Positions 19,401 through 35,255 of a stretch of DNA of 64,000 bases are shown piece after piece. Position 1 is the first letter of the stretch. Every line of letters starts with the position of its first letter. Source of the stretch: Spirochaetota bacterium. GTDB lineage: Bacteria > Spirochaetota > UBA4802 > UBA5550. The position numbers and the translations under genes were made by a program. The stretch is from contig CAXXHB010000002.1 in assembly GCA_963664815.2 (NCBI GenBank), forward strand, positions 448,001 through 512,000, in the 5' to 3' direction. Under the pieces are notes generated by a model. It saw nothing but the letters and a program-made list of their open reading frames with translations. It was not told the origin of the DNA and searched no databases.

Positions 19401-22400
19401 TGGAAATAACCGCGAATGGCAATATAACAAATAGCGGGGGAACAATAAAAAGCGGCGGTTCCCTTACCCTTACAGCAGTAAATGGAAATATTATAAATGA
19501 AACAGAAGTAAGCACTGCAGTATATAATCCGGACTATGTAAATACAACCGTTGGTGCAGCAGCATCCATAGAAGCAGGGGGAAAACTGACTGTAAACGCC
19601 GGGGGTAATTTTACAAACAGGGGGGCAGAAGTAAAATCGGGGGGTGACGCGGTAATTGAAGCCGGCGGGAATATAAATTTTGAGACGATTAAGATCAATA
19701 ATACTGTTTATAAGGAAGCTGACGATACAAGCGGAATATCAACTACCTCCGAATCTGCCGGTTCCACGCTTGCATCAGGGGGAAACCTTGTACTTACATC
19801 GGGAAGGGATATAAACTTTGTCGGGAGCAAAGCTGACATTACCGGTAATGCTGAAATAACTACAGCGGGTAATTTTAATCTTCTTAACGACTATGATACC
19901 AGTAGTTATCACGGCACAAAGAAAGAGAATAAAACCTTCAGCAGTGAAACCACAACAGTGGATATGAGTACAAAGACCGTTGTAAGCTCCGGTTTCACAA
20001 CAGGGGGAAACCTTAAGGTAAAGAGCGGAAACGACATAAATATAGTTGGAAGCGATATAAAATCGGGTGGAGATGCCGAACTTGACGCTGAAGGTACCGA
20101 AAGGATAATAGCAGTTCATGACGAATCATACTACAGCAGGACAACGGAAAAGACAGGTTTTGCCACAGGTGGGGCATTATACGGCTCCGAGAAGAAAAGC
20201 GACATGGTGTCGGACAAGACAGTCAGCGGCTCTGCCATTGACATAGCAGGGCAGTACGCATCAAAATCGGGGAAAGATACCGATATAACAGGGAGCACAC
20301 TTAATATAGGGGGCGAAGCCGATATAACCACCGGCGGCAGTTTAAATGTAAGGGCCGCATACAACGAACATGCGGAAGAGCATAAAACAGAGAAGAGCGG
20401 AGTATTGACAACAGACGGCGATCTGTACGCCAAATCGATAGACGCAGCCGGAAACGGAGCAACAACAGCCGCGGGATCTGCAATAACTGCCGGAAAACTT
20501 AAAGCATCCACAGGCGGCGATTTTCTGATGGAGGGGAGCGCCATAAACGCCGGCATTGCGGAATTTGACACAACCGGCAGTTTTACAGAAACAAGCGCAA
20601 AAGAGACAAGCTACGAATACAGCATCCATGAAAAGACCACAATGGGGATAAACATGGACCTGTTTACCAACCCCAAAAACGCCTTTGACTATGACCAGGG
20701 GAGAGCTTCTGTAACGCTTGCAGGGGGGAGCTACGACAGCGTAAAGGAGAGGACAGACAGGGAGACACAGAGCTCATCAAAACTTAATGTATCGGAAGAC
20801 CTTACGGTAAACAGCGGAAAGAATATAACAGTAGCGGGATCTGAGATAAATACCGGTGGAGATGTAACCCTTACGGCGGCAGAAAACGTAAGCATAAAGA
20901 CAACAGAAGAGAAGACAAGCCATACAGCAGAAGAGACTCACGGAAGCGTGGAATTTTCGTTTGGGGGCAAGAATGCCGCAACGGATGTGGCATACGCAAC
21001 AAAGGCTCTGGTAGAGGCAAAGGAAGCAGTTGTAAAGGCAAAGAATGATTATGAGAAATACAGGGAGAGCCTGAAGAAAGCGGAAGATGACCATAAAAAC
21101 AACCTTATAGACCAGGATGATCTGGATTCAATAAGAGAGCAGGAGGCCTTTTACATTGCGAATATAGCGCTCTGCGGGGAGAACGTGGTTGCAAAGACAG
21201 CGGCGCTGCTGCAAAGCGCAGCGGGGGCGGCGGGATCTGCAGAGGCATTCGGCTTCAGCGGAGATGCCCAGTTTGAAATAGACGCCACAAAAACAAAATC
21301 GACATCGGAAAGCACAACTGCAAAGGCATCGACAATAAAAACCGGAGGGAGCTTTACCGTAACAGCGGGGAGCAAAGCGGAGGTAAAGGGGAGCAGCGTG
21401 GCAGCCGGCGAGGATATAACCCTTGACGCAGAGAATGTGGAGATAAGCGCGGCGGAGAACAGAGAGAGCAGCAGCGAAGATAAGAAACATGCCAACATGA
21501 AGGTAAGTTTCGGAACATCGGGAGCAATTGGAGTTAATGCATCAGCAGACAGCACGGAGACAGATAGCGAAAGCAAAACATATACCAACGCACATTTAAG
21601 CGGAAACAACATAAAAATAAAGAGCAGCGAAGACACAACCGTAATCGGCGGAGTGGTAAAGGCGAAAAACGAGCTTGACCTTGATGTAAACGGCTCCCTT
21701 GTGGTACAATCACTGCAGGATAAGAGTAAAAACAGCTCGCAGACCATAGGCGCAAGCGGTGGAGTAAGTGTAACAGGCGAAAACGTATCGGGAAATGCCG
21801 GAGTAAACGCAAACTTCTCCACGGGGAAGAAAAGCTGGGTAACAGAACAGACATCCCTAACCGGCGGGACAGTAAACGTAGACGTTGAAGACAAGACAAC
21901 CCTAAGAGGGGCAGTAATAGCATCAACAACGAACAACCTGACACTTACAACCGGAAGCCTCGAGTTCAGCAACATAAAGGACAAGGACGTATCTTTCAAT
22001 GCAGGTGGAAGCGCAGGCGGCAGCTTCAAACCAACAGAAAATACGTACAGTTCAAGTTTAAACTACGGCTACACAGACAACAGACAGACAAACCTGGCCA
22101 CAATAGGAGCAGGAACAATAACAATAACCAAACCGGAAACATCGGCAGAGGGACTTAACAGAGATGTAACAATATCACAATACAATACATACAGCGGAGG
22201 ACTGAAAGGCGGAGTTACGGTAGATACCGCAACAGTAGAACTGATAAAAGACAGGGAAAAGACCTTATATAATACAGTAGATGCATTGGAAAGTGGATTA
22301 ACTGAAGCAGAGAAAACAGCGAAAAAGGTAGATAAGGAAATTGAAACAACAATTGAGAAGACTGAGAACCTGATTGATGTCGGGGAGTTTGGGCTTAATA

Positions 22401-23014
22401 AAGATTCAGATGTAATAAAAGCAAAACTTGAAGAATATAATGTGGATTTAGAAAAGAATGGAATTGAAGATGTAAGATCATTGAAGGGATTCAGCATTAT
22501 AAGTGAAGATGGAAATTTAATCAATGTTTTATCTTCGGGAGAATTGATTATTAAACCATTACAGGCTTTTGAAAATAGACCGGAATTGGCTTATCCTCTT
22601 GAAATGGGAGGTGATACAGAAAATACAACTTATAGTAAGAAAATAATATCATCTTCTAAAAATGGATATATAGATTTAAATATTTCTGGTGGATATATCG
22701 GAGGTATAACTGGTGGTTTAATTTTAAGTAATAATGGTAATCTATATCCATATTTAGGCGTAGGTTTGGTAACACCCGGTATTAGTGGTGCTTTAACTAT
22801 TTCAACCTCAGAAGCAAGTAGCGGATTTAATGTTGGTTTGCAAGCACAGAATGTTGTAGCTGGTCAAATCGGTTATAGTTTCCAAAATAATGGAAGTTCA
22901 TTTGGAGAACTTGGATTTGGAGCACCTGCTGGGGTTTCTGTAACTGGATATTATATATTTAATCCTATTACTAACATTTTAAATAAACCATCTGTTAATT
23001 ATGGTAAAAAATAA
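16493..23014 (+). CDS. Filamentous haemagglutinin/CdiA-like two-partner-secretion exoprotein with C-terminal toxin tip
   Basis: Signal peptide (likely start 16517), TPS domain (GVSHN.F..YNV...G.ILNN, INEV, NPNGI.CNG..FIN), FHA repeats, LGDAFYEQKLV/PIIWYV..VLVPKIY region, AT-rich divergent C-terminus. Confidence 0.9.
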   Translation: MLPGKISVMKRLKEILKQLLVLLLAGEMCTFALPPLYAADITVDTSAANKPTLDTAQNGVTVVNLATANSNGVSHNMFQNYNVGTGGVILNNSVNMGVSVLGGAMYGNPNYQSSGVAASLVINEVTGTGRSSLLGATEMFGKSAEFVLVNPNGIMCNGASFINMPRVTLATGRAVFDSDVFKGIDISGGSLIVEGKGIDAGQVNYFEIVSRVASLNGGIWGKDVSINTGTGFYNYNDKTFTQKDTGEPKPEIGIDASALGSIYAGRITVVSNEKGVGVKSDGDMVADVSDIKISADGNIELKNAQSAKNVTVTSISGDIKQNGNTFAMENAGYSAKNITNRGSIKALKDISLAGLIDNNGGKIASSGNIDIAATGTLDNNGGSITTAGENGTISIHGNGSLDILGGEIKSAGNIGIDMTGNVTLNSGISSIYAEKHLGISSADFTNNINLSMNGAIGINASGNIVNSSGSSIVSKQGVSISSGGNIVNSGIISSASDMAINGKNISNYKEISSGNDLAIHADTILNSGALIFSGNKMTIETGSLKNTRNGLNESYIYSMGDMTITGTAPTGNSIYNYSSNIESEKNMSINLGADGRLENTGEDTYGYTTTLVHVGDYGDECWAVMDQYVLSQSLMHTDYSTIKAGGNLDITSGEVKNHGSVISAGADITINAATLINETNNRNEYVAQLNYMGHKHHWTETICGWGWTEYDEGDDYSEVWEAGYINVVSNDKAIISAGGKVTLTGGAVNNGFVEENKPGVVLSGNTVDKAYEAIANNGAIDLSQNININNDGNALFTVNSAPGSTYLIETRNEFIDVEKLKGSQYLLTRIGFNPEKDVKFLGDAFYEQKLVTESILKATSNRYLDESIKSDQEQMTWLLDNAASAYRDLELAVGVELSKDQINRLQQPIIWYVEDEVMGQKVLVPKIYIPEHIIEGFSKNSSSTIAGNSVNINADGNVGNAGRIEGKSSVEITANGNITNSGGTIKSGGSLTLTAVNGNIINETEVSTAVYNPDYVNTTVGAAASIEAGGKLTVNAGGNFTNRGAEVKSGGDAVIEAGGNINFETIKINNTVYKEADDTSGISTTSESAGSTLASGGNLVLTSGRDINFVGSKADITGNAEITTAGNFNLLNDYDTSSYHGTKKENKTFSSETTTVDMSTKTVVSSGFTTGGNLKVKSGNDINIVGSDIKSGGDAELDAEGTERIIAVHDESYYSRTTEKTGFATGGALYGSEKKSDMVSDKTVSGSAIDIAGQYASKSGKDTDITGSTLNIGGEADITTGGSLNVRAAYNEHAEEHKTEKSGVLTTDGDLYAKSIDAAGNGATTAAGSAITAGKLKASTGGDFLMEGSAINAGIAEFDTTGSFTETSAKETSYEYSIHEKTTMGINMDLFTNPKNAFDYDQGRASVTLAGGSYDSVKERTDRETQSSSKLNVSEDLTVNSGKNITVAGSEINTGGDVTLTAAENVSIKTTEEKTSHTAEETHGSVEFSFGGKNAATDVAYATKALVEAKEAVVKAKNDYEKYRESLKKAEDDHKNNLIDQDDLDSIREQEAFYIANIALCGENVVAKTAALLQSAAGAAGSAEAFGFSGDAQFEIDATKTKSTSESTTAKASTIKTGGSFTVTAGSKAEVKGSSVAAGEDITLDAENVEISAAENRESSSEDKKHANMKVSFGTSGAIGVNASADSTETDSESKTYTNAHLSGNNIKIKSSEDTTVIGGVVKAKNELDLDVNGSLVVQSLQDKSKNSSQTIGASGGVSVTGENVSGNAGVNANFSTGKKSWVTEQTSLTGGTVNVDVEDKTTLRGAVIASTTNNLTLTTGSLEFSNIKDKDVSFNAGGSAGGSFKPTENTYSSSLNYGYTDNRQTNLATIGAGTITITKPETSAEGLNRDVTISQYNTYSGGLKGGVTVDTATVELIKDREKTLYNTVDALESGLTEAEKTAKKVDKEIETTIEKTENLIDVGEFGLNKDSDVIKAKLEEYNVDLEKNGIEDVRSLKGFSIISEDGNLINVLSSGELIIKPLQAFENRPELAYPLEMGGDTENTTYSKKIISSSKNGYIDLNISGGYIGGITGGLILSNNGNLYPYLGVGLVTPGISGALTISTSEASSGFNVGLQAQNVVAGQIGYSFQNNGSSFGELGFGAPAGVSVTGYYIFNPITNILNKPSVNYGKK

Positions 23015-23236: not shown

Positions 23237-23270
23237 ATTAATAAAATTAAATGTATCATCATACCAGACA

Positions 23271-24383
23271 ATGGATGAGTACGCGAAGAAGGTAGAAAAC
23301 GGGGAACCGGTAAGTGCACAGGAGAAGCTTGATTATTATGAGTTAAAAAAAGCTGTCGGAGAAAAACTGAGTCCTGAAGAGCAGCAGGATGAGAATAAAG
23401 CGATTCAGACAAGAACCAAAGAAGTAGCAAATGATCTGAAGCAGGATATTCTTGATACATATACAAAAGATACTGCGGTTGTAATAAATGCCAAGATAGC
23501 GTTGCTTAAAGAAATTGATCCTGAAGCGGCACATGCAATTGAGGTTAAGTTTGCTAAGGAGAGGGCGGCGAATGAGAAAACAAAAGAGGCTAAGTATCTT
23601 GCCGACTTTAAAGAACTGGACAGATCGAAGACTAATGAATATTTAGAAGGACAAAAAGGTAAGGATTTATCGTATTACGCAGGTGAATTTGGTGAAGGAC
23701 TTTTATCTTCATTACCGACTAAGGATGAAATAAAAGAATCATTAAAAACAGGTGGATTATACCTGATAAATCCTGCACTGGGAAGTGCTTATGAATTTAA
23801 TAAAAGAGTTGAGACTGTAACAGGTTTAGCAGATAATATAAGTGAACAGGGTGCAGGAAACTATTTAGGCAATGTAGCAGAAAATGTAAAAGAGAAGGTA
23901 ACCGAACACCCTGCTGAGGTGGCTGGTTTCATTGCAGGTGAATTGATTGAGAATGCTTTAATAAATAAAGGATTATCAGTTTCCGGTATTACAAGTGCTG
24001 AGAATGTTTTGGGTGTAACAGGGAAAGCGGATGATGTTTCAAAAAAATATTATAGATATATTGACGAAGGTGAAGCTAACGTTATTAGAAATACTGGTGA
24101 AATCCCGAATACTAATAAATATGGTGATCCCAAAGATATATTTATAACTGATCGTCGTTATGAAACTGCTGGTGGTGCAAAAACTTATAATCAATTACCC
24201 TTAAAACCTGAATACAGAATAGAAATAGACCCTGAAAATGTACCTAATAGAACACCTTTTACAAAGATAGAGCCAAATCATCATCCTGAATGGGGAAAAG
24301 GTAGGGGTGTTGAAGCAATAACAAAAGATCCGATACCAGTCAACCCTGATGATTTGGTTAAATTGAAAGGGACAGGAAAATGA
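23271..24383 (+). CDS. Orphan toxin tip 1 (C-terminal domain possibly Ntox10-like)
   Basis: N-terminus shared with orphan 2 (MDEYAKKVENGEPVSA; DILDTYTKDTAVVINAK). Distinct C-terminus YRYI.E.E...I..TG...Y.TA..A....LP..PEYR.EI...G.G.E. Confidence 0.7.
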   Translation: MDEYAKKVENGEPVSAQEKLDYYELKKAVGEKLSPEEQQDENKAIQTRTKEVANDLKQDILDTYTKDTAVVINAKIALLKEIDPEAAHAIEVKFAKERAANEKTKEAKYLADFKELDRSKTNEYLEGQKGKDLSYYAGEFGEGLLSSLPTKDEIKESLKTGGLYLINPALGSAYEFNKRVETVTGLADNISEQGAGNYLGNVAENVKEKVTEHPAEVAGFIAGELIENALINKGLSVSGITSAENVLGVTGKADDVSKKYYRYIDEGEANVIRNTGEIPNTNKYGDPKDIFITDRRYETAGGAKTYNQLPLKPEYRIEIDPENVPNRTPFTKIEPNHHPEWGKGRGVEAITKDPIPVNPDDLVKLKGTGK

Positions 24384-24808
24384 ATAAAAGTTGGCCTGAA
24401 GAAATGCTTTTCGAATATTATAAAAATAAAGAAACGATAAATAATCTATTAGTTCATGTTATTTTATTATCAGAATTAAAAAATGATTTTTCTCTTGGTC
24501 ATTTTTTGACTGATAAAAATGGAAGAATCAAAATAACAAAAGATTTTATGATGAATGAAATAAAAAGAAATGAGTTAGAATTCCCAATGGACTATAAAGG
24601 AACTTTAGAAAATTGCTATGGAATTAAAATAATTATAGAAAATATTGATGATTTGAATGATAGGAAAATTAGAATAGAAAAATATTATCCTAATGATGCA
24701 AAAAAATTTGAAGAATTAATTCTGAAATGTTCAAATGCTAATTATTTAACAAAAGAATTTATTTATAAGTTCCCTTTAGAAAAAAATGAGTTTAAAATAG
24801 AAATGTAA
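24380..24808 (+). CDS. Putative immunity protein for orphan tip 1
   Basis: ATGA overlap with the upstream toxin; AT-rich; soluble. Confidence 0.65.
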   Translation: MNKSWPEEMLFEYYKNKETINNLLVHVILLSELKNDFSLGHFLTDKNGRIKITKDFMMNEIKRNELEFPMDYKGTLENCYGIKIIIENIDDLNDRKIRIEKYYPNDAKKFEELILKCSNANYLTKEFIYKFPLEKNEFKIEM

Positions 24809-24893
24809 TCTATCTTTAGCACGGCGATTATTGCTGAAGCTCTGGGATTCGAAGGTGAGAGTTTAAAAAACGTCACCAACAGTTCAACATGTC

Positions 24894-24994
24894 GCAATAA
24901 TTGAGTAGCTTGACGTCGTCGCCAATGACTGTGTAAAGTTTATTTTAAAACAAGGCGACGATGTGCTAAAGCGAACATCTAGTGAAAATTTCGT
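24894..24994. repeat. attC-like bulged palindrome, copy A (diverged)
   Basis: AATAATTGAGTAGCTTGAC-GTCGTCGCC...GGCGACGATGT-GCTAAAGCGAAC-ATCTAGTG-AAAATT; homologous to copies at 30061, 32219 and 34508. Confidence 0.6.
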
Positions 24995-24996
24995 GT

Positions 24997-25100
24997 TCTA
25001 TAATTCTGAACCAGCTAATTATTGATCTTTGAAAGTAATTTTTTTCTGTTATATACCGGAAAAAAAAGTTTTCGCAGGATTGTGCGCAGGCAGATGTTGA
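24997..25100 (+). repeat. Conserved cassette leader, copy 1
   Basis: TCTATAATTCTGAA...TTATTGATCTTTGAAAGTAATTTTTTTCTGTTATATAC...CAGGATTGT...GCAGATGTTGA; also at about 30192-30295 and 32350-32453. Confidence 0.75.
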
Positions 25101-25287
25101 TACATACAGCGGAGGACTTAAAGGCGGAGTTACGGTAGATACGGCAACAGTAGCACTGATAAAAGACAGGGAAAAGACTATATATGATACAGTGGGTGCA
25201 TTGGAAAGTGGATTAACTGAAGCAGAGAAAACAGCGAAGAAGGTAGATAAGGAAATTGAAACAACAATTGAGAAGACTGAGAACCTG
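25100..25287 (+). repeat. Direct repeat of the cdiA-like internal segment at about 22185-22372 (recombination homology)
   Basis: Near-identical DNA encoding TYSGGLKGGVTVDTATV.LIKDREKT...IETTIEKTENL. Confidence 0.9.
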
Positions 25288-26328
25288 TTAAAATTTGACC
25301 ACTATACAGAAAATAAAAATGTATCATCATACCAGACAATGGATGAGTACGCGAAGAAGGTAGAAAACGGGGAACCGGTAAGTGCATCAGAGACACTTGC
25401 ATATTACGGATCAAAAAACCTTGTCGGAGAAGCACTGAGCCCCGATGAGCAGATGGATATGCTGAATGCTTACAAAACTGTAAAGCAGGAGCTGTCAAAT
25501 AGTCTGTCAAAGGATATTCTTGATACATATACAAAAGATACTGCGGTTGTAATCAATGCCAAGATAGCGCTGCTTAAAGAGATTGACCCTGATGCGGCAC
25601 ATGCAATTAAAGTTAGGTTTGCGGAGGAAAGGGCGGCGATAGCTTATGCTAAGCAGCTGGCGGTAAATTCAGGTTTAAGAGATGCGGAGATACAGCAGGG
25701 AAATGAGATAGCAAATAATGTTGTCAATCTTTCGGGAACAGTTAATACAATGGGGATTGATAATACTGATTCCAATTCTCCTGATGCAAAACTATTACGT
25801 ATAGTTAAAGACAAATTAACTGAAAATTCGATTGAATCGATTGCAAATGCCGGAAATTCTGATAGTACGTTGAAGCAGGCATTCAATTTAGCTTTAGGTG
25901 TAGTGTTTAAGGAAGCAGCAGACAATATACCTGAACATATAAGTGTTGCTGACGTAGGGCTTTCTGAAGCTGCAGGAAATGTTTTTGGAAAGGTAGAAAA
26001 ACAAATTGTTAATGAAACGGAAGATGCTGCTAACCTTGTGGAAAGAAATCTTCCATTTAAAGATTCAGATCGCTTGACTGAAATTAATAAAACTCTTGAT
26101 AGAATTGAGCAAGGAGATAACTTTTGTTATAAAAAAGATGGAACTCTTTTTAGAAATGACAAAAAAAAATTACCAGCTGATGGTGATTATAGAGAATATA
26201 CAGTTAATACACCAGGCGCATCTAATAGAGGAACTCGTAGAATTTTAGTAGATCAAAATAGTGGTAATACATATTATACTGATGACCACTATGAAAATTT
26301 TATACAAATAAATCCAAAGAAAAAATAA
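25192..26328 (+). CDS. Orphan toxin tip 2 with barnase/RNase Sa-family ribonuclease domain
   Basis: DGTLFRN..KKLP...YREYTV.TPG...RG.RRI.......YYT.DHY..F; the frame stays open upstream to 25039 without an ATG. Confidence 0.85.
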   Translation: MGALESGLTEAEKTAKKVDKEIETTIEKTENLLKFDHYTENKNVSSYQTMDEYAKKVENGEPVSASETLAYYGSKNLVGEALSPDEQMDMLNAYKTVKQELSNSLSKDILDTYTKDTAVVINAKIALLKEIDPDAAHAIKVRFAEERAAIAYAKQLAVNSGLRDAEIQQGNEIANNVVNLSGTVNTMGIDNTDSNSPDAKLLRIVKDKLTENSIESIANAGNSDSTLKQAFNLALGVVFKEAADNIPEHISVADVGLSEAAGNVFGKVEKQIVNETEDAANLVERNLPFKDSDRLTEINKTLDRIEQGDNFCYKKDGTLFRNDKKKLPADGDYREYTVNTPGASNRGTRRILVDQNSGNTYYTDDHYENFIQINPKKK

Positions 26329-26330
26329 AA

Positions 26331-26738
26331 ATGATAAATAAATTAGAAAAATATTTGTATGACTGTATTCATTTTACAACTGATAATATAAATAATTATT
26401 TAAAAGAGAATTATAATAATTTTAATATTTTAATAATTGATAATAATTCTATAGAAAATGATAAAGATCTATTTAATTCAATTGCAAATGTAATGAAATT
26501 TCCTGATTATTTTGGGAAAAATTGGGATGCATTGGATGAATGCCTACGAGATCTTGACTGGCTTGAATTAAAAGAGGGATTGATATTAGTTATACTTAAT
26601 TCAAAAAAAATATGGCAAAGATGTCCGATGACAGCTGGTAAATTAATAGAAAGTTGGTTAACTGTTGTAGATTATTGGTCTAAAGAAAAAGTTCCATTTC
26701 ATTTATTTTTTTCTGAAATGGAAATTGATAAATTATAA
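26331..26738 (+). CDS. Barstar-family immunity protein
   Basis: FPDYFGKNWDALDECLRDLDW motif, directly downstream of the RNase tip. Confidence 0.92.
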   Translation: MINKLEKYLYDCIHFTTDNINNYLKENYNNFNILIIDNNSIENDKDLFNSIANVMKFPDYFGKNWDALDECLRDLDWLELKEGLILVILNSKKIWQRCPMTAGKLIESWLTVVDYWSKEKVPFHLFFSEMEIDKL

Positions 26739-26855
26739 TTCAACTAACGAATAACGAAACCATGGAATGTAAATCGATTTTATTTTAAGAATTATAAATT
26801 TCTGATAATGTAGACTTGTAGTTCCTTTCTACGTCACATATCGTGTAAATGAAAA

Positions 26856-26929
26856 AGTTCCTTGAAAACCAACAATATAAAAGCACACCGCGTGAGAGAT
26901 TGCAGCGATATAAAACGGCAATCAATAAA
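26856..26929 (+). repeat. 74-bp direct repeat, copy 1 (copy 2 at 34716-34789)
   Basis: AGTTCCTTGAAAACCAACAATATAA.AGCACACCGCGTGAG.GATTGCAGCGATATAAAACGGCAATCAATAAA, 2 mismatches between copies. Confidence 0.85.
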
Positions 26930-27020
26930 TAGTTAAATGAAAACCCTATGTGCGTAAGCGTCAAATTAACCCCATCTTGAAAAAAGATCAATGATATATT
27001 ACAATACCCTTCATTAAAAA

Positions 27021-27347
27021 ATGGAGGAAGAGATGAGTAAAAGAATTGAATATCAGAAACGCGATATGTCAAGCATGGAGAAACATATAGCCGCCTGGGA
27101 ACAAAGCGGGATATCACAAGTTGAGTATTGCAGAGAGAATAAAATACCTCTGTCAACCTTCGGCAACTGGAAATCAAAAGTAAGTAAAAAATCTCAGAAA
27201 GAAATACCATTTATTGAACTGCAGGGGAATTTTTCATATCAGGATGAATATTTTGAATTACTGCTCGATGATGGCATGACTTTGAGAATCCGTGAAACCA
27301 TCCCTGTATCGCAATTACGAAATATCATTCTTGCCATACGGAGGTAG
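27021..27347 (+). CDS. tnpA: IS66 accessory protein TnpA
   Basis: W.QSG.SQ.EYC....I..STF..W HTH motif. Confidence 0.85.
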   Translation: MEEEMSKRIEYQKRDMSSMEKHIAAWEQSGISQVEYCRENKIPLSTFGNWKSKVSKKSQKEIPFIELQGNFSYQDEYFELLLDDGMTLRIRETIPVSQLRNIILAIRR

Positions 27348-27697
27348 TGATGCTCAGTTTGCAGAGAGAAACGAGAATATTTCTTCATCCCGGCAAAACA
27401 GATTTTCGGAAGTCAATCAATGGTTTATCCGTCTTTGTTCAGGAGCATATGAAGGAAGACCCTTTCAGCGGGAATTACTATGTGTTCTGCAACCGGACAA
27501 AAAATATGCTGAAGATATTATACTGGGACAGGAATGGTTTCTGCCTGTGGCATAAAAGGCTGGAGGAGGATAAATTCCGCTGGCCCCGGATAGCCGAAGA
27601 TGTCCATGAGATTACCCGCGAGGAATTCCGGTGGCTGTTACAGGGGCTTGACTTCTATAATGCTCATAAAATCCGCCGTTATGCAAGCGTGATATAA
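27347..27697 (+). CDS. tnpB: IS66 accessory protein TnpB
   Basis: DFRKSINGL...DPFSG..YVFCNR....KILYWD.NGF.LW.KRLE...F.WP. Confidence 0.95.
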   Translation: MMLSLQRETRIFLHPGKTDFRKSINGLSVFVQEHMKEDPFSGNYYVFCNRTKNMLKILYWDRNGFCLWHKRLEEDKFRWPRIAEDVHEITREEFRWLLQGLDFYNAHKIRRYASVI

Positions 27698-27720
27698 AAA
27701 TTAATTGCAATCATGAGGGC

Positions 27721-29316
27721 ATGTTATATGATGTACTCATGATTGCAATGCCCGACAACCTTCCTGATGATGTAAACGAGCTCAAGAAAATTATTTCAAA
27801 CCTGGCAAATGAATACGAAAAAGAAATTCAATATCTTAAAGAGAAAAATAAATTTTTACTTCAAAAGTTATTCGGCCGTAAAAGCGAGAAGCTGACTCCC
27901 GATGATATTCTACAGGGCCGGTTGTTTGATGAATCAGAATTCAGCTCTGATGAGAATGAAAACGCAGAAGATGATTCACCTGAAAAGCTAACCGTTGTTT
28001 CATCTCATACACGCCGGAAGACAGGAAAGAAACCTCTTCCGGAATCACTCCCTCGTGTTGATGTTGTACATGATATCTCCGAAGAAGAAAAACAGTGTGC
28101 CTGCGGGTGCGAGATGAAACGCATTGGGGAAGAAGTTTCTGAAAAGCTTGATATGATTCCTGCGAAAATCCAGGTGCTTCGTCATATCCGATATAAATAT
28201 GCCTGTAAAAACTGTGAAGGGAGCGAAAGTGATGAAGCTCCGGTAAAGATTGCGCCATTGCCTCCGCAGATTATACCGCAGGGGATTGCAACACCAGGAC
28301 TTGCGGCATGGGTGCTGGTGAGTAAATTCTGCGATGCGCTTCCTTTTTACCGGCAGGAAAAGCTTTTTTCCCGGATTGGTGTTGATATTTCACGAGCGAC
28401 TTTTTGTAACTGGTCCATTATTACACATAGAGGCAGTGAACGGCTGCTCGAACTGATGTGGAGAGATATTCTTGCGTCTCGGCTTGTTGGCATGGATGAG
28501 ACGCCGGTGCAGGTTATGAAAGAGCCAGGCCGCAAAAATACAACAAAGTCATACATGTGGCTGTTCCGGGGTGGAGAAGAAACCCGACCAATTGTGATAT
28601 TCCGGTATGCTCCGACCCGGGGATCGGAATTCATAAACAGTGAATTTGCGGATTACGAAGGTGTCATCCAGACCGACGGCTATCAGGGATACAAAACTCT
28701 GGGTAAAAAAGAAAAAGTAACACATGCTGTATGCTGGGCACATGTCCGGAGAAAATTCATGGAAGCGATGAATGGCACCAGTCAGTCTTTTTCACATTCT
28801 ATAGTATCGATGATAAAAACGCTTTATGATGTAGAAAAAGAAATACGTGAGAATAAATATAACCATGAAGAGATCAGACAGGTGCGCAATGATAAATCAC
28901 GTCCAGTAGTGGAAAAGATAGAACAGCAATTGAAAAAGCATGTTCACAGTATTGCACCGGGAAGTCTTGCCGGTAAGGCAATCTCATACTCATTAAAGCT
29001 GTGGCCCCAGTTGTGTGTATATCTTGACAACCCTATTATTCCCATCGACAATAATCATGTTGAAAATGCAATCCGCCCTTTTGTGGTGGGACGAAAAAAC
29101 TGGCTTTTTTCCGGTAGCCCGCGCGGTGCCCATGCCAGTGCCGGATTATATAGCATAATAGAAACGGCAAAGGCAAATGGTCTTGAGCCATACTGGTATC
29201 TTAGATACCTGTTTGAAAAATTACCTGCCTGTACAAGTGATAATGAAATCCGGTCAATTATGCCGAATAGAATTGATCCTGAAGTTATCAGTAAACTCAG
29301 AGGTGGGGTTAATTAA
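27721..29316 (+). CDS. tnpC: IS66 DDE transposase TnpC
   Basis: LFGRKSEK, zinc finger, DETP, TDGY, CWAHVRRKF, IDNN..EN.IRP..VGRKNWLF. Confidence 0.95.
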   Translation: MLYDVLMIAMPDNLPDDVNELKKIISNLANEYEKEIQYLKEKNKFLLQKLFGRKSEKLTPDDILQGRLFDESEFSSDENENAEDDSPEKLTVVSSHTRRKTGKKPLPESLPRVDVVHDISEEEKQCACGCEMKRIGEEVSEKLDMIPAKIQVLRHIRYKYACKNCEGSESDEAPVKIAPLPPQIIPQGIATPGLAAWVLVSKFCDALPFYRQEKLFSRIGVDISRATFCNWSIITHRGSERLLELMWRDILASRLVGMDETPVQVMKEPGRKNTTKSYMWLFRGGEETRPIVIFRYAPTRGSEFINSEFADYEGVIQTDGYQGYKTLGKKEKVTHAVCWAHVRRKFMEAMNGTSQSFSHSIVSMIKTLYDVEKEIRENKYNHEEIRQVRNDKSRPVVEKIEQQLKKHVHSIAPGSLAGKAISYSLKLWPQLCVYLDNPIIPIDNNHVENAIRPFVVGRKNWLFSGSPRGAHASAGLYSIIETAKANGLEPYWYLRYLFEKLPACTSDNEIRSIMPNRIDPEVISKLRGGVN

Positions 29317-29399
29317 GCACATACCTATGTGCCAAGATAGTTGTCGCATGGAACATTGATTGGTAGTAAGAAAGAAGCTGCAAAAGTGGAGAACAAATT

Positions 29400-29996
29400 A
29401 TGAAATGGATTAAATTATTATATGCTATGTCGTTATCTCTTCTTTTGTTTTCAGGTTGTACATGTATTTACCCAGTTTTAGATTATGTTGACGAGAATAA
29501 TAAAAGTTATATTGAATTGTTTAATGAAGATGGTTGTAAAATTGAAATGAAATATTTGGGAACATATCCCACTTATCCTGATATTCACGGGAATCCTGTC
29601 ACTGAAGAAATAATTTCGCATGAACAAACATACATTTTTATTGATAGTTCCAATCGAAATGTAGATGGATATACAAGCAGCATTGAAAAATGTCATATTG
29701 AATTGAAAGATGAAGATAATAAAATTATATCTTTTAAAAGCATTGAATTAAAATCCTACTTAAAGAACTTTAATCATTATGATAAAGAAGAAAGTATATC
29801 AAAATTTAAACTAGATAGGGGTCTTTATGAAATTATATATTTATATAATGATACAAGTAATATAGAAAGTGCCAAATTTTATATCAAACTTCGTTTAATA
29901 ATTAAAGGCAAGATACATATAATAGAAAAATCAGCATTTTTGAAAAGAAAAGAGGGGAAAGTCTTTTTTACACCGTTTTGTAAAATAAAGTTTTGA
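29400..29996 (+). CDS. Orphan immunity-like lipoprotein
   Basis: Lipobox LLFSGC; paralogous to 31491-32168; followed by attC-like copy B. Confidence 0.7.
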   Translation: MKWIKLLYAMSLSLLLFSGCTCIYPVLDYVDENNKSYIELFNEDGCKIEMKYLGTYPTYPDIHGNPVTEEIISHEQTYIFIDSSNRNVDGYTSSIEKCHIELKDEDNKIISFKSIELKSYLKNFNHYDKEESISKFKLDRGLYEIIYLYNDTSNIESAKFYIKLRLIIKGKIHIIEKSAFLKRKEGKVFFTPFCKIKF

Positions 29997-30060
29997 TTGA
30001 GGTGTCGTGTCTTCTCCATAGGTAGAAGTAAAAACACCACACAACCAAGTTCCGCATATA

Positions 30061-30159
30061 GCATAATTGAGTAGCTAGACCGACATCGCCGGGGCTGGAT
30101 TAAGTTTCTGATACATGAGTCCGGCGATGTGCGTAGCGAACGTCTAGCGACAATTATGT
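30061..30159. repeat. attC-like bulged palindrome, copy B
   Basis: CATAATTG/CAATTATG, GCTAGAC/GTCTAGC and ACATCGCCGG/CCGGCGATGT complementary arms with internal bulges. Confidence 0.75.
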
Positions 30160-30929
30160 TGAGTTGACATATTGATATTTTATTGATCTGTTCTATAACT
30201 CTGAATTAGTTAATTATTGATCTTTGAAAGTAATTTTTTTCTGTTATATACAGTGAAAAACCGTTTTCTCAGGATTGTATACGGGCAGATGTTGAAGAGG
30301 CAACAGAAACTACCAAAGCTAAAGAAGGTCTTGGATTCGCGGGTACACTCGAGGCTGTAATTAATGCCCGTAAGGATGTATTAACAATAGCATCCCTGGC
30401 AGAGAACAAGGCTTTAGCTGAAAAACTCGATAATGCACTTGATAAAGATGCGGCATCATTGGGAGAAGCGGTTAATAAGGTTTCTGAAACTGTTCAGAGC
30501 AGCGATGGAGTTAAGGATGATAAAATATCTCATGTAAATCTGTATCAGGGTGATAAAACAGATAACGCGATGAATGGATATGCAGCAGCATATGACCAGA
30601 ATAGTAATGAAACATATCTGAATACCGAAGGAACAGATATATCAAAGGGTGGTGATATTATTACATCACTCTTCTGGGAAGCCCAGAGGAAGGATAACAC
30701 TACTAATGGGCTGGACCTTGATGCAGGACAGCAGCTAATACTTGCATCTTCACGTGGAGAACAGGCGGGAAATTTATGGAACAGGTTTTCAGAAACAGCT
30801 TCAACAACTACAAATCATGATGCTGTAATTAACTGGAATACAGTCAATGCGGGTTCAGATACACTGATTAAGGGGAGTGCTAAAGCGAATGAACTTAATA
30901 CAGACGATGGGCATGGGGTTGTACCGAGA
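30061..30929 (+). repeat. ~870-bp direct repeat (partner 32219-33087): palindrome, leader and shared toxin N-terminal region
   Basis: Near identity at offset 2158 up to about 30838, then protein-level similarity up to GVV(P/A)R. Confidence 0.92.
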
Positions 30930-31484
30930 CCAATAACACCAGTTGATGTAAATAATGCAAGAGATATAGCGATAATGGAATCACCTAAAAAGGCATTAAC
31001 TCTTTTAACCGCAATAAAATTGGAAGGAAAAGAAGGAACCACAGAAGAGAAAGAGAATATGATGAATAAGATTGTAACTCATCCAAAAGCTGAAGAATTG
31101 TTAATGGAATTATTAAATAATGGTGAAACAAAAGGAGTTGATACAATTTATGAAACGATAAGTAGTACATTTGATAAAGGTAAACCGGATTTTGGTTCAT
31201 TTACAATTCAAAATGTGGATACATATGATTATCTTGTAACAAATAGAAATGAAGCACTCGAGGTAGTGAATTCGATTTTTGGACCAGATTATAACACTGC
31301 TGCAAGACTATACCCAAATGAAAAATATGATAGATATGGTGGGATACATATCGAAGCTGTAAAAATTGAAAATAATAGCACACAAGTTCAAATAGATATA
31401 GATCAATACCCACCGCAGGATATAATAAATTTACCAGCGCATTACTGGTATGATGTGTTGCAAAAGGGGAGTAAGGAAAAATAA
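30459..31484 (+). CDS. Orphan toxin tip 3 (unknown toxin domain)
   Basis: Shared N-terminal region (frame open from about 30240). Unique C-terminus ..GGIHIE...QIDIDQYPP...PAHYWYDVL. Confidence 0.7.
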   Translation: MGEAVNKVSETVQSSDGVKDDKISHVNLYQGDKTDNAMNGYAAAYDQNSNETYLNTEGTDISKGGDIITSLFWEAQRKDNTTNGLDLDAGQQLILASSRGEQAGNLWNRFSETASTTTNHDAVINWNTVNAGSDTLIKGSAKANELNTDDGHGVVPRPITPVDVNNARDIAIMESPKKALTLLTAIKLEGKEGTTEEKENMMNKIVTHPKAEELLMELLNNGETKGVDTIYETISSTFDKGKPDFGSFTIQNVDTYDYLVTNRNEALEVVNSIFGPDYNTAARLYPNEKYDRYGGIHIEAVKIENNSTQVQIDIDQYPPQDIINLPAHYWYDVLQKGSKEK

Positions 31485-31490
31485 GATTAA

Positions 31491-32168
31491 ATGAAAAATC
31501 CTGTAAAAAAAATTAAGAAAGTAATAATTACATTTTTGGTTCTTTTTTCAATTATATTTGTGGGGGTATTTGCTTTCTCAATAATAGGTGTATATGTATT
31601 ACAGCCTCATTATGATTATGTTTATTATGTTGATGAAAGAGAAAAGGACTCAATATCTGTTTCTCTAGATGAAATATCTAAAGCAGCAATTTGGTTTGAA
31701 TATTTAGAAGATTTTTCAAGTATCGGGTCAGCGGCTGTTCCAAAAGAAATTGATGGAATGGTATATACGCAGATATTAATAATGGATATAATCCCACAAA
31801 TACATATAAAAGATTGCCGTGTGGAAATAAGAGATATAAAAAATCAAATCATACCGCATAAGTCAGTAGTAATTCGAGATAAAACTTATTATAAGAATAA
31901 ATACAATGAGTATATAAAATATAATAATATAGATGAATATATTAAAACAAAGCCGGTAATAGATACAGAACACACAAATTATGCGATATATTATACATAT
32001 CTTCATAAAAATTTGAAAGATGTAAATGAAGCTATGCTTAACATAAAATTTAAATATGAGATAGATGGTAAAATATACGAGCAGAAAATTAATAAAAAGA
32101 TTTATCGGAGAGTTAAAAATATTCAGCTTGAAAGTGGGGTCGGTATACCTGATAAAGTTGAGGAATGA
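31491..32168 (+). CDS. Putative immunity protein for tip 3 (N-terminal TM anchor)
   Basis: Directly downstream of tip 3; AT-rich; paralog of 29400-29996. Confidence 0.7.
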   Translation: MKNPVKKIKKVIITFLVLFSIIFVGVFAFSIIGVYVLQPHYDYVYYVDEREKDSISVSLDEISKAAIWFEYLEDFSSIGSAAVPKEIDGMVYTQILIMDIIPQIHIKDCRVEIRDIKNQIIPHKSVVIRDKTYYKNKYNEYIKYNNIDEYIKTKPVIDTEHTNYAIYYTYLHKNLKDVNEAMLNIKFKYEIDGKIYEQKINKKIYRRVKNIQLESGVGIPDKVEE

Positions 32169-32218
32169 ATAAGTCCTATACAATAGCTCAGTTCACTTTC
32201 ACAGAAATTCCCCATATT

Positions 32219-32317
32219 GCATAATTGAGTAGCTAGACCGACATCGCCGGGGCTGGATTAAGTTTCTGATACATGAGTCCGGCGATGTGCGTAGCGAACG
32301 TCTAGCGACAATTATGT
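32219..32317. repeat. attC-like bulged palindrome, copy C
   Basis: Identical to copy B. Confidence 0.75.
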
Positions 32318-32616
32318 TGAGTTGACATATTGATATTTTATTGATCTGTTCTATAATTCTGAATCAGTTAATTATTGATCTTTGAAAGTAATTTTTTTAT
32401 ATTATATACAGTGAAAAACCGTTTTCTCAGGATTGTATACGGGCAGATGTTGAAGAGGCAACAGAAACTACCAAAGCTAAAGAAGGTCTTGGATTCGCGG
32501 GTACACTCGAGGCTGTAATTAATGCCCGTAAGGATGTATTAACAATAGCAGCCCTGGCAGAGAACAAGGCTTTAGCTGAAAAACTCGATAATGCACTTGA
32601 TAAAGATGCGGCATCA

Positions 32617-33864
32617 TTGGGAGAAGCGGTTAATAAGGTTTCTGAAACTGTTCAGAGCAGCGATGGAGTTAAGGATGATAAAATATCTCATGTAAATCTG
32701 TATCAGGGTGATAAAACAGATAACGCGATGAATGGATATGCAGCAGCATATGACCAGAATAGTAATGAAACATATCTGAATACCGAAGGAACAGATATAT
32801 CAAAGGGTGGAGATATTATTACATCACTCTTCTGGGAAGCCCAGAGGAAGGATAACACTACTAATGGGCTGGACCTTGATGCAGGACAGCAGCTAATACT
32901 TGCATCTTCACGTGGAGAACAGGCGGGAAATTTATGGAACAGGTTTTCGGATACTGCTTCAATAACTACAAATCATGATGCTGTAATTAACTGGAATAAT
33001 GCGAATGCTGAATCAGATACACTGGTTAAGGGTAGCGAAAAGGCGAAAGAACTTGATACAAGTGAAGATGGTGGAGTAGTAGCGAGATCAAAACCAATGA
33101 TTTATAAAAAGACTTATCAGGAATATGATAAAAAAGTTACTATTGTAGTTACAGCTGAACGTGTAGATAAAGGTGACACGTTAGTTAATGATTTTATTGA
33201 AACTGACATGAAAGCTATATCAAAAGCCGGTGAGAAAACTGATTTTGAAAAAGTAAAGGCAATGTATTTAGAACGTAACCCTGATCTTGCTAATAACCCT
33301 GATAGTCTAAAAGAAGGGCAGATACTTATAACAGATGTTCGGATGTCAAAAGAAACTAATAAAACAATAATACCAATGGGTGATGTACTTATAAATGGAG
33401 GAGTGGATGCGACTCTTTCAATTGTACACACACTCGGTGAAGAAGTTTCATTAAATAAATATACACATTATTCGTTAGAAATAGATAATGAGAATCCGTT
33501 AAATTCATCATTTAATATAGAAACTACTCTCTTTCCAACTGTAACATATAAATCCGAAGTAGTAGGAGGTGGTTATAATTTTTCTAATAATGTTGGCATA
33601 AGTTATGGAAGATTTGAAAAAACTGAAGAAGGGTTAAACACATTTCTTGGTTCTTCAGAACAAGCAACTATTTCAATACCAGGTTTTAGCCTTTCATTAG
33701 GGAAAAGCAATCCAAGCGAAAATGGAAATTATTGGACATCAGGTTCAACAGGTATAAACCTTATTCCGGGTGCTTTAGTGAATTGGGGAGAAACCAATAC
33801 AAAACCATTTAAAATAATTAAACCTGTGACGGAAAAGAAAACATATTCACTTACGGGCGAATAA
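32617..33864 (+). CDS. Orphan toxin tip 4 (LysM-like segment plus glycine-rich C-terminus)
   Basis: Shared N-terminal region with tip 3, then V.KGDTL...NP.L..NPD.L..GQ.L and a Gly-rich beta-type C-terminus. Confidence 0.7.
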   Translation: MGEAVNKVSETVQSSDGVKDDKISHVNLYQGDKTDNAMNGYAAAYDQNSNETYLNTEGTDISKGGDIITSLFWEAQRKDNTTNGLDLDAGQQLILASSRGEQAGNLWNRFSDTASITTNHDAVINWNNANAESDTLVKGSEKAKELDTSEDGGVVARSKPMIYKKTYQEYDKKVTIVVTAERVDKGDTLVNDFIETDMKAISKAGEKTDFEKVKAMYLERNPDLANNPDSLKEGQILITDVRMSKETNKTIIPMGDVLINGGVDATLSIVHTLGEEVSLNKYTHYSLEIDNENPLNSSFNIETTLFPTVTYKSEVVGGGYNFSNNVGISYGRFEKTEEGLNTFLGSSEQATISIPGFSLSLGKSNPSENGNYWTSGSTGINLIPGALVNWGETNTKPFKIIKPVTEKKTYSLTGE

Positions 33865-34460
33865 TGAAAATAAAAATTAGTGATATTCGGCTCCTTTTTG
33901 GATTAGTACTTCTCTTGATTTGTTTTTATTTTTATTTAATATCACCTTCCAAAAAAGAAGTGCAACAAAAGCAGGCTGTAATGTTACAGAATATTGTAAA
34001 CAGAGATGTAGATGAATTATCAATTGTAATAGATGTTCATAGTAAATATTCATATTTAAAGATTAAAGATAAAAAAATAATCAAAGAATTTATGGATGCA
34101 TTAAAAAACGATTCTTGTTTTCAATTCTCAATGACAGGTCAATACAACAGTGAATATGTATTGACATTACATAGCAAAAGTAATAGCGATTTGATTAAAT
34201 TAAGCAGTGACACTTTTAATAATAGTGTAAAAAGTGATTCAGTAAAGGTGACACTCTTTGAAGTTAAAAATATAGATATATTTGACCTTTATTATAAATC
34301 TATAATGGAAGGTGAAAATTTCTTTAGCCTTTTTATGGTGTACTATGGTTACGGTGAATATTATTATGAAAATTACAAATTATATAATATAATCGACAAG
34401 TATATTAAAGATAAAGGAACAGTATATAATCATTCTACGATACTGTGGGTGCGAAAATAA
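33864..34460 (+). CDS. Putative immunity protein for tip 4 (N-terminal TM)
   Basis: TAATG overlap with the toxin; AT-rich. Confidence 0.65.
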   Translation: MKIKISDIRLLFGLVLLLICFYFYLISPSKKEVQQKQAVMLQNIVNRDVDELSIVIDVHSKYSYLKIKDKKIIKEFMDALKNDSCFQFSMTGQYNSEYVLTLHSKSNSDLIKLSSDTFNNSVKSDSVKVTLFEVKNIDIFDLYYKSIMEGENFFSLFMVYYGYGEYYYENYKLYNIIDKYIKDKGTVYNHSTILWVRK

Positions 34461-34507
34461 ATTCGGTATAAAAGCTCAGTTCACTATAATAACAAGTTCC
34501 CCATGTT

Positions 34508-34608
34508 GTAATAATTGCATAGTTTGATGACATCAACAGTGACTGGATAGAGTTTCTGATACATTGAATCGTCGATGTACGAAAGTGAACGATCAGTAAT
34601 AATTATGC
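34508..34608. repeat. attC-like bulged palindrome, copy D (diverged)
   Basis: ATAATTG...GACATCAAC..GACTGGATAGAGTTTCTGATACAT..GTCGATGT..GAAC...AATTATGC; shares its loop sequence with copies B and C. Confidence 0.6.
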
Positions 34609-34950
34609 GATATGAATATATAGAAAAAGATTTTCATTTGTTTTCAGTTAATTGTATTGTTCAAACGACTTAATTTTACTTAAGTTCTCTGTTATGAATT
34701 ATCAGCAGTAATTCCAGTTCCTTGAAAACCAACAATATAACAGCACACCGCGTGAGGGATTGCAGCGATATAAAACGGCAATCAATAAAGAGTAAATAGA
34801 AATCAACAGATTGGCCGTTTTATACAAGCAGAAAGCCCGGCCCTGACGAATGTGAAATAAACATTTCATATATAATAAAAAATATTAACAACATGTAGGG
34901 GCGTAAAACATTACGCCAAATGATATTCAAGATCGTCAGTGTCACGTCCA

Positions 34951-35156
34951 TAAACTACGGCTACACAGACAACAGAGGGCAGACAGACAAGCCTGGCCAC
35001 AATAGGAGCAGGAACAATAACCAAACCGGAAACATCGGCAGAAGGACTTGTCAACAGAGATGTAACAATATCACAATACAAACATACAGCGGAGGACTGA
35101 AAGGCGGAGTTACGGTAGATACGGCAACAGTAGTGTTGGCAACAGACAGGGAAAAG
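34951..35156 (+). pseudogene. Frameshifted relic of the cdiA-like segment at about 22059-22261
   Basis: TAAACTACGGCTACACAGACAACAGA...GACAGGGAAAAG matches the exoprotein gene with several small indels. Confidence 0.85.
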
Positions 35157-35255
35157 TGCTGACCGTGGGAAGCATAATTTTTTAATCAGTTCATTTAAAG
35201 AAAAGTTCCTTCTTTTTGAGGGTGTCTGTTTTTTTTGTAAGCAATTAAAACATTA

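Follow-up and report, generated by a model that had tools for sequence, protein, structure and literature searches.

Introduction

Is the roughly 100-nt imperfect palindrome that closes one toxin-immunity cassette after another in a spirochaete genome a recombination site, a mobile repeat or a piece of RNA? The question is raised by positions 24894-34608 of a 64,000-nt stretch of Spirochaetota bacterium assembly GCA_963664815.2 (contig CAXXHB010000002.1, positions 448,001 to 512,000; G000:C2:448001-512000), hereafter called the window, which belongs to a genome of 5.2 Mb in three contigs. The locus is a TpsA-type toxin locus of the two-partner secretion (TPS) class, similar to loci of contact-dependent growth inhibition (CDI), with start-less orphan modules downstream of the exoprotein open reading frame (ORF). 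A first-pass annotation of this DNA had read the palindromes as integron attC-like sites, through which cassettes would be captured or shuffled as single-stranded DNA (ssDNA) hairpins. One part of that proposal stands, namely that the 3′ ends of toxin-immunity cassettes are accompanied by a hairpin under selection, whereas the integron-like capture of ssDNA cassettes is not supported. The reading favoured here, with a rough probability of 0.5, is that a hairpin in the sense-strand RNA acts in cis on the cassette transcripts, by processing, stabilising or insulating them; a structured RNA had been the fallback of the first-pass annotation.

Silent arrays of toxin tips are common behind TpsA/CdiA, Rhs and Maf genes, and their transcription, insulation and reshuffling are poorly understood. 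In the present case toxin-immunity pairs that are unrelated to one another, in two spirochaete families, have one and the same selected structure at their 3′ end. If it acts as RNA, the hairpin should set the ends and the stability of immunity transcripts, and it could explain how orphan immunity genes are expressed while orphan toxins are silent; if it acts as DNA, it would represent a new cassette-exchange system. Judged by sequence comparison, the hairpin is a candidate for a new family of structured elements, and it is a useful marker for locating toxin cassettes in these genomes.

Fold of the hairpin in the window

The covariance model R1 places all four homologous elements of the first-pass annotation, from 24891-24997 to 34505-34611:

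24891..24997, + strand, hairpin copy A (W_A), outer 3′ arm decayed; R1 69.8 bits, inner stem retained with changed sequence
30057..30162, + strand, hairpin copy B, the best-folding form; R1 110.2 bits, 25/26 pairs Watson-Crick
32215..32320, + strand, hairpin copy C; R1 110.1 bits, 98% identical to copy B over 300 nt
34505..34611, + strand, hairpin copy D (W_D), decayed; R1 81.7 bits, 14 Watson-Crick and 6 G.T pairs of 26

The element starts given in the first-pass annotation lie 86, 65, 51 and 48 nt after the ends of the preceding ORFs (24808, 29996, 32168 and 34460), in agreement with the 45-90 bp after an immunity-gene stop that had been reported for them. Copies B and C fold stem by stem as originally drawn. 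In copy B, stem 1 pairs CATAATTG (30062-30069) with CAATTATG (30151-30158), stem 2 pairs GCTAGAC (30074-30080) with GTCTAGC (30142-30148), and stem 3 pairs ACATCGCCGG (30083-30092) with CCGGCGATGT (30121-30130). Folded as ssDNA, copy B (-21.7 kcal/mol) reaches a z-score of -4.8 and copy C one of -4.5, and none of 200 shuffled sequences folds as well. Copy A retains the inner stem only (z -1.6), with the changed sequence that the first reading had noted; copy D is homologous, yet its fold is no better than that of shuffled sequences (z +0.1, 101/200 as good).

Other details of the earlier description have changed. What had been drawn as a plain second bulge is itself a small hairpin, which makes the whole fold a three-way junction. 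The size of ~100 bp applies to the hairpin core, whereas the repeat is longer: in this genome the core belongs to a unit of ~290 nt, in which a short leader precedes it and a spacer of 140 nt, including a promoter-like site, follows it. Likewise, four is the number of copies in the window, and the genome total is ten.

Selection on the fold

The hairpin fold is under selection. Across 22 copies aligned with MAFFT, the 26 pairs are 91.1% paired, as against 25.7-48.1% with a slid partner, and none of 500 shuffles reaches the observed pairing or covariation score. An alignment of 34 copies to the model, which is biased in favour of the structure, gives 90.8% and 24.8-54.1%. Both sides change at 6/7 pairs of stem 2, which exists in at least four mutually complementary versions (GCTAGAC/GTCTAGC, GCAGCCC/GGGCTGC, GTTAAGC/GCTTAAC and GGTAAGC/GCTTGCC), while stem 3 is nearly invariant, with both-sided changes at four pairs among the 34 copies. 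Weaker evidence, including a CG-to-GC swap, extends the outer stem by ~11 more pairs in relatives (68.8% paired, 32.5-55.8% when shifted).

Sequence conservation is seen in the junction strand GAAC and at the two ends, which are ATAAT(T/G)G and CAATTAT in each of the 22 aligned copies; the inner stem and the junction sequence are conserved across two families; the terminal loop is conserved in the main family and different in the second. The mini-hairpin in the 3′ internal loop consists of GC, three letters and GC; five copies, all from a single genus, have it enlarged to 20-45 nt. Three copies possess a second type of inner part, with other stems 2 and 3 on the same outer stem and leader and with GCGAAC kept.

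The second inner type is found in L152, L153 and L147 (genomes G057, G059 and G061). Homologous DUF3467 immunity genes are followed by a type 1 hairpin in G026 and by a type 2 hairpin in G061.

Several structures of known kind were considered and rejected. The core motifs of the hammerhead or other known ribozymes are absent, and no Rfam match was obtained. A kink-turn (K-turn) or loop E in loop I is incompatible with loop letters that differ between copies. Pseudoknot pairing of the terminal loop with GTATCA of the leader was discarded because the leader is retained in type 2 copies, which lack that loop, and an inverton because covarying inner stems are not needed by an invertible segment.

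Complementary arms could in principle be renewed by template switching rather than by functional selection, if the element were a selfish or neutral palindromic repeat of the kind of miniature inverted-repeat transposable elements (MITE), enterobacterial repetitive intergenic consensus (ERIC) or Correia elements, serving as a downstream homology arm for tip swaps. Such an origin would suit the size of ~100-135 nt, the 18-nt terminal inverted repeats seen in relatives, the decayed copies of this genome (W_A, W_D and X2), the embedding in long homology blocks common to arrays and the separability of hairpin and spacer (C3:2093629 and C3:2111782). It would also suit two half-copies (L165 1501-1619 and L151 1501-1624; G051g and G052b), in which the 3′ half has been lost between short direct repeats (GATGTGCG-like), a pattern that resembles replication slippage. 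Palindrome correction, however, would erase the asymmetric loops, the GAAC strand and the particular G.U pairs, all of which both families retain. Symmetry is lacking too, since the leader is conserved 20-35 nt beyond the 5′ arm only; no target-site duplication is seen at the element copies; and the element is not dispersed, all ten copies lying in three toxin arrays. On balance, a palindromic repeat of this kind is an improbable explanation.

The folding strand

The sense strand is the strand that folds. G.T cells of the alignment number 62 and A.C cells 11, G.U is the commonest pair at two positions among the 34 copies, and U.G occupies extension position 6 in 18/24 copies. Modelled as RNA, all 26 copies are more stable in the sense than in the antisense orientation, by 9.9 kcal/mol on average (median z -3.5). 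The wobble excess together with the sense stability identifies the sense strand as the folded molecule, be it RNA or top-strand DNA, and the poorer pairing of the antisense strand makes a cruciform that uses both strands equally unlikely.

These data bear directly on a possible role in double-stranded DNA, either as a replication-stalling cruciform that stimulates silent-cassette recombination or as an operator for the promoter-like site downstream. The inverted repeat of Borrelia vls has been proposed as a cruciform-type recombination stimulator, and here as well a palindrome stands between an expressed gene and silent cassettes; its outer stem sequence is strongly conserved, and in this genome a conserved promoter-like site follows 14-41 nt after the hairpin. 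A cruciform, though, needs both strands paired, and the antisense strand is the worse one throughout. An operator would be expected to keep its half-sites and not to swap stem 2 for new complementary versions, and the promoter-like spacer is limited to this genome, not being found in relatives. A double-stranded role is thus very unlikely.

Cassette ends and transcription signals

The hairpin is positioned at cassette ends. The upstream sequence is long enough for this comparison in 34 copies. In 30 of them an ORF of 70 aa or more on the same strand ends within 350 nt upstream (random positions, 136/400), and in 26 within 120 nt (random positions, 61/400), at a median distance of ~50 nt. The genes directly upstream encode unrelated immunity-type proteins (leucine-rich repeat (LRR), ankyrin, HEAT and DUF3467), each of them preceded by a toxin-like ORF. 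The element does not code for protein, as each of the three frames is closed by stop codons at the hairpin start.

A terminator-like same-strand hairpin with a T-run lies within 170 nt downstream of 7/33 copies, as compared with 1/33 upstream and 1/33 on the other strand, which places the element of those loci inside the transcribed 3′ end. The element itself was also considered as an intrinsic (Rho-independent) terminator, a candidate rejected for want of a T-run after all ten copies of this genome.

Promoter-like sites in 22800-35400 equal those of shuffled sequence in total; the best of them is TTGATA-16-TATAAT (11/12) after copy C (32330-32357). This site, as TTGATA-16-TATAAC or TATAAT, is kept after six hairpin copies of the genome and also at C3:2093629, where there is no hairpin. 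The spacer that carries it runs in frame into the next orphan, and the site may drive the orphan immunity genes. Further upstream, xATAAT in the 5′ arm is preceded at 16-18 nt by a -35-like hexamer in 15/37 copies, against 1-7/37 in control windows, and in just 1/10 copies of this genome. In a possible sub-variant of the RNA reading, the 5′ arm xATAAT doubles as a -10 box and the junction part is made as a separate small RNA.

A proposed cis-acting RNA hairpin

The folding strand, the conserved wobble pairs and the place between stop codons and terminators suggest that the element acts as RNA. By analogy with the long intercistronic hairpins compared at the end of this text, it would serve in processing, stability or insulation and may be a substrate of RNase III. 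According to this model, the transcript leaving each toxin-immunity cassette would include the element, whose likeliest role would be that of an intercistronic or 3′ untranslated region (3′-UTR) signal for processing or stability. A long double-stranded stem is the typical substrate of RNase III, and that of the element would be cut by this enzyme. Either the cut product or the stem itself, as a block to 3′ exonucleases, would protect the upstream toxin-immunity message, and this message would be uncoupled from the silent orphan module that comes next.

A number of observations weigh against such a role. Folding is weak in six of the copies in this genome (z between 0 and -1.6: W_A, W_D, X3, X4, X5 and X6), and none of its ten copies is followed by a T-run or by a terminator-like hairpin within 170 nt downstream. 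Sequence conservation in stem 3, the junction and the outer stem goes far beyond the need of a simple stabiliser, which suggests a specific partner, and this partner could bind DNA. The G.T excess fits folded top-strand DNA equally well. An own promoter at xATAAT, if real, would yield a transcript from which the outer stem's 5′ arm is missing. Counting ORF distances is a crude measure, as the opposite-orientation control gives 18/31. Finally, an Rfam 15 scan of 15000-40000 on both strands produced 0 matches at E <= 1, so that the proposed function of the hairpin is without precedent.

Copy number and distribution

A combination of BLAST and R1 finds ten copies in the genome, four in the window and six on contig C3, and all of them lie inside three TpsA arrays, those on C3 having exoproteins of 2303 and 2306 aa. 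Five other BLAST matches are weak (E 0.9-5.9, 14-20 nt) and represent noise, none of them being a copy. Occurrence throughout the genome in the manner of MITE or repetitive extragenic palindromic (REP) sequences, the outcome that the first-pass annotation had envisaged as contrary to its proposal, is therefore not what is seen.

The comparison covered one genome per species. R1 detects the element in 12/64 genomes of the family, in four genera; in 14/122 genomes of the order, which adds a second family; and in 3/151 genomes of a phylum sample. As all three of the latter come from the same order, no element was detected by R1 in the ~134 sampled genomes of other orders. Plasmid and phage collections contained no match to the element. 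A pattern scan of genome contigs returned 85 stretches, with real copies only in 8 spirochaete records, and among 80 loci listed from a metagenome pattern scan 3 passed the covariance model. The carrier relatives are spirochaete metagenome bins. Homologues of the pretoxin region of this TpsA are present in 9/64 genomes and the hairpin in only 4 of those 9, which indicates that the element goes with the cassettes and not with this one exoprotein.

Organisation of the locus

The other features of the array are the following:

16493..23014, + strand, full-length TpsA-type exoprotein, 2173 aa, with expressed C-terminal toxin (PF05860 TPS domain, E 5e-42; PF13332 hemagglutinin repeats, E 2e-45)
23271-24383 and 24380-24808, + strand, orphan toxin-like ORF and immunity-like ORF, an overlapping same-strand pair
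25100..26738, + strand, orphan with barnase-like RNase tip (PF00545, E 2e-15), then Barstar immunity gene at 26331-26738 (PF01337, E 3e-22)
26954..29324, + strand, IS66 insertion in the array, not part of the element (PF03050, PF05717)
29400..29996, + strand, immunity-like ORF of 198 aa ahead of copy B, no Pfam family
30163..30284, + strand, conserved spacer with promoter-like TTGATA-16-TATAAC (30172-30199), from sequence comparison
30258..32168, + strand, orphan toxin module and immunity-like ORF (31491-32168), ORFs with no Pfam family
32416..34460, + strand, orphan toxin module (listed ORF 32617-33864) and immunity-like ORF (33864-34460), no Pfam family over cut-off
34716..35162, + strand, array end, with an 87-nt second-family repeat and a cut pretoxin fragment, from BLAST identities

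A TPS exoprotein, toxin-immunity pairs and downstream start-less modules with a pretoxin region together make this a TpsA/CdiA-type locus. Each of the orphan modules has as its partner a small ORF on the same strand that overlaps it. The orphans are related to the exoprotein gene and to one another: 25100-25287 is 95% identical to 22185-22372 of tpsA, 34951-35156 at the array end is 88% identical to 22059-22261, and the 5′ part of orphan 23271-24383 is homologous to other orphans, although neither ORF of the pair 23271-24808 belongs to a Pfam family. The module at 30258 has a frame open from 30258, a first start codon at 30459 and an end at 31484; the orphan frames 30258-30459 and 32416-32617 contain no ATG, GTG or TTG for ~65 codons. 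The first 890 nt at copy B, comprising hairpin and orphan, are 95.6% identical to the next module, and the immunity-like ORF 29400..29996 shares 76% DNA identity with C3:2093743-2094434.

The IS66 element, with its transposase and Orf2-like TnpB, sits between the Barstar gene and the next immunity-like gene, flanked by the duplicated CCTATGTG(C), an 8-9 bp duplication. Two more copies of IS66 on C3 are 99-100% identical, and an IS66 fragment lies in the C3 array. A second repeat family of 87 nt (26856-26942 and 34716-34802, 93% identical, with five more on C3) heads a linker of 320-470 nt before "long" orphans, which start further upstream in the pretoxin region. By BLAST, the orphan N-terminus class ADVEEATETT... 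of the frames 30258-30459 and 32416-32617 lacks a full-length partner gene in this genome. A 121-aa ORF without a Pfam family is located directly upstream of all three tpsA genes (16047-16412, L175 11332-11697 and C3:2105849-2106214), and a TpsB (ShlB) gene adjoins the C3 locus, with none adjacent to the tpsA of the window.

The integron hypothesis

As set out in the portion of PMC2727003 available to this analysis, attC sites end in R″ and R′ heptamers with conserved AAC/GTT triplets, and they fold and react as the bottom strand, with extrahelical bases on the R″-L″ (5′) arm. The resemblance claimed for the palindromes extends to a conserved outer stem, a 4/2-nt loop and a variable yet complementary stem 2, but not to the part beyond stem 2, which is not variable. 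The AAC/GTT core is absent from the hairpin ends in the 22 aligned copies. The largest unpaired part, the mini-hairpin of 11 nt, is on the 3′ arm, in contrast to the 5′ position of the extrahelical bases of attC.

Nor is an integron integrase detected in the genome: with the TIGR02249 model, no intI gene exceeds the cut-off of 265 bits, and the best match consists of two pieces of 126 and 100 bits from which model positions 180-234, the IntI-specific segment, are missing. IntI over the cut-off is missing from 11/12 carrier genomes and is found in 2/64 family genomes, G006 (L166) and G030 (L167), with 399.5 and 387 bits on short contigs. One of these genomes is without the element, while in the other, G030, the gene has an in-frame TGA and is on a different contig from the single element copy. 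Near the two true intI genes R1 detects nothing (best 14.9 bits, E 0.1).

The statement that no integrase is present in the window is borne out, since contig C2 as a whole has no PF00589 match at E <= 1e-5, though an IS66 transposase is found inside the array. The nearest PF00589 match on C3 is >100 kb from the arrays, and the flanks of all three arrays, which encode EAL, methyl-accepting chemotaxis (MCP), TpsB, TPR, GGDEF and methyltransferase proteins, are free of recombinase genes. In G026, G030 and G077 the recombinase genes lie on other contigs than the element. Only G051, among five carriers examined, has a trio of tyrosine recombinase genes, together with a HicB gene, 4-6 kb from the copies; the three genes are in tandem, one of them shortened (L295 12379-14926, L296 183-1112), and the trio looks like a separate mobile element. 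A short dif motif matches this genome at 20 places, and none of them stands out as its dif site.

The integron-like capture of ssDNA-hairpin cassettes thus lacks support on several counts: IntI over the cut-off and a flanking recombinase gene are absent from this genome, the sense strand is the one that folds, the inner parts are conserved, and the breakpoints, described below, are scattered. Membership of the element in the attC family is not supported.

Homology breakpoints and cassette exchange

In five lineages homology with the shared 3′ flank breaks off 0-3 nt from the terminus of the outer 3′ arm, after AATT in W_A and G051e and after AATTATG in the spacer class of this genome, the M190/G055b class and family f3. 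In the tenth copy, X6 (G000:C3:2082233-2082476, L173), a cut pretoxin piece directly adjoins the hairpin on its 5′ edge. At C3:2093629 and C3:2111782 the spacer occurs without the hairpin, the break falling 10 nt after the hairpin position, and at C3:2093741-2093629 an unrelated ~110 nt replaces leader and hairpin. Copy X3 shares 58 nt beyond the hairpin, and copies C and D share the upstream sequence up to the stop codon. Homology between copies accordingly ends at several places, not at one crossover point. Copy X6 is itself followed by a strong hairpin, and short orphans also begin at the same TACATAC position.

On a larger scale, the hairpin is embedded in blocks of 750-890 nt common to the arrays, which would be amply long enough for the variable toxin-immunity part to be exchanged by homologous recombination. 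In the contigs of four DNA runs over 22900-35300, all of them short, 12 joints were listed and two of these traced: the joint 24941->32276 corresponds to a paralogous C3 copy (11 letters match copy X3), and 26944->29324 to the IS66-free form. The joint 32232->34573, seen in one run, has just 28 letters on one side and is not trustworthy.

Could the element nevertheless be a recombination site without IntI? In that case it would act as folded ssDNA, similarly to attC or to the attachment site of CTX phage, through a trans-acting tyrosine recombinase of another kind, for example the host Xer, and toxin-immunity cassettes would be excised, captured or re-ordered. The attC-like layout, with an inner part of two types and variable lengths, agrees with this idea, as do the presence of a hairpin after each cassette whatever the gene family, the breaks near the outer 3′ arm in five lineages, the X6 joint at the 5′ edge and the proximity of the G051 recombinase trio. 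The ends CATAA...TTATG are presumably also akin to the inner ends of Xer-type dif arms. The opposing evidence is the restriction of IntI to 2/64 genomes, the lack of a recombinase on C2 or within 100 kb of the C3 arrays, and a folding top strand that has no AAC/GTT core and carries its largest unpaired part on the 3′ arm. Furthermore, the breaks differ (after AATT, after AATTATG, 10 nt and 58 nt beyond the hairpin), the flanking homology of 750-890 nt suffices for ordinary homologous recombination, and neither of the two traced joints among the 12 listed is a novel cassette joint. Such a site is consequently an unlikely explanation of the element.

A related scenario combines both processes in an integrase-free, integron-like system, in which each module would be a cassette, its folded single strand cut at the outer stem (CATAAT/ATTATG, Xer-arm-like) by a housekeeping or distant tyrosine recombinase, after which homologous recombination with the exoprotein gene would fix it in place. 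The scenario is distinctly unlikely; if true, it would amount to a second, independent invention of hairpin-cassette genetics, for interbacterial weapons.

Comparison with known systems

Full-text literature on CDI and orphan cassettes, polymorphic toxins and two-partner secretion yielded no description of such a hairpin element, and the stem-loops mentioned together with orphan cdiA-CT modules in PMC11278526 are ordinary terminators only. The closest parallels are therefore to be sought among repeats that delimit genes in other arrays.

Sites of the attC type, including those in clusters of attC sites lacking integrases (CALIN), are alike in being imperfect palindromes of 57-141 nt, just 3′ of a cassette ORF and in arrays; they also have conserved outer boxes, a less conserved paired second box and unpaired spacers, and their arrays may lack a nearby integrase (available portions of PMC2727003 and PMC4889954). 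The differences are that each "cassette" here is accompanied by a promoter-like site and hundreds of bases of shared homology, and that the inner part, variable in attC, is conserved here in stem 3 and junction.

The rAID-1 loci of Bacteroidales are arrays of co-oriented immunity genes, and the portions of 10.1101/471110 and PMC12247911 available here call their intergenic motifs reminiscent of integrons. Repeated intergenic motifs between co-oriented immunity genes are a shared trait, the motifs being compared by description only. In these same portions an XerD-like recombinase gene at the 5′ end defines rAID-1, whereas none flanks the present arrays, which, moreover, keep toxin tips and hang on a TpsA gene.

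In Neisseria, silent C-terminal cassettes are likewise found downstream of a TpsA-type gene (fhaB/mafB), as stated in the portion of PMC1797815 available here. The same portion describes neisserial dRS3/RS arrays with short inverted ends, proposed to promote exchange of neighbouring genes by homology or by a site-specific recombinase, and it presents the maf and fha cassette loci as being without array repeats, unlike the spirochaete arrays. The dRS3 repeat has 20 bp, in contrast to a covarying hairpin of 100 nt, and there is no sequence likeness between the two.

The RNase III hairpins of T7 early mRNA and the REP, ERIC and Correia sequences are long imperfect hairpins in intercistronic or 3′-UTR positions, specific in orientation, which set mRNA ends and stability. 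It is with these that the favoured RNA reading aligns the spirochaete element. The element, known here from its sequence, differs from all of them in its conserved three-way junction; and while REP, ERIC and Correia sequences are dispersed in tens to hundreds of copies, it is found only after toxin-immunity cassettes.

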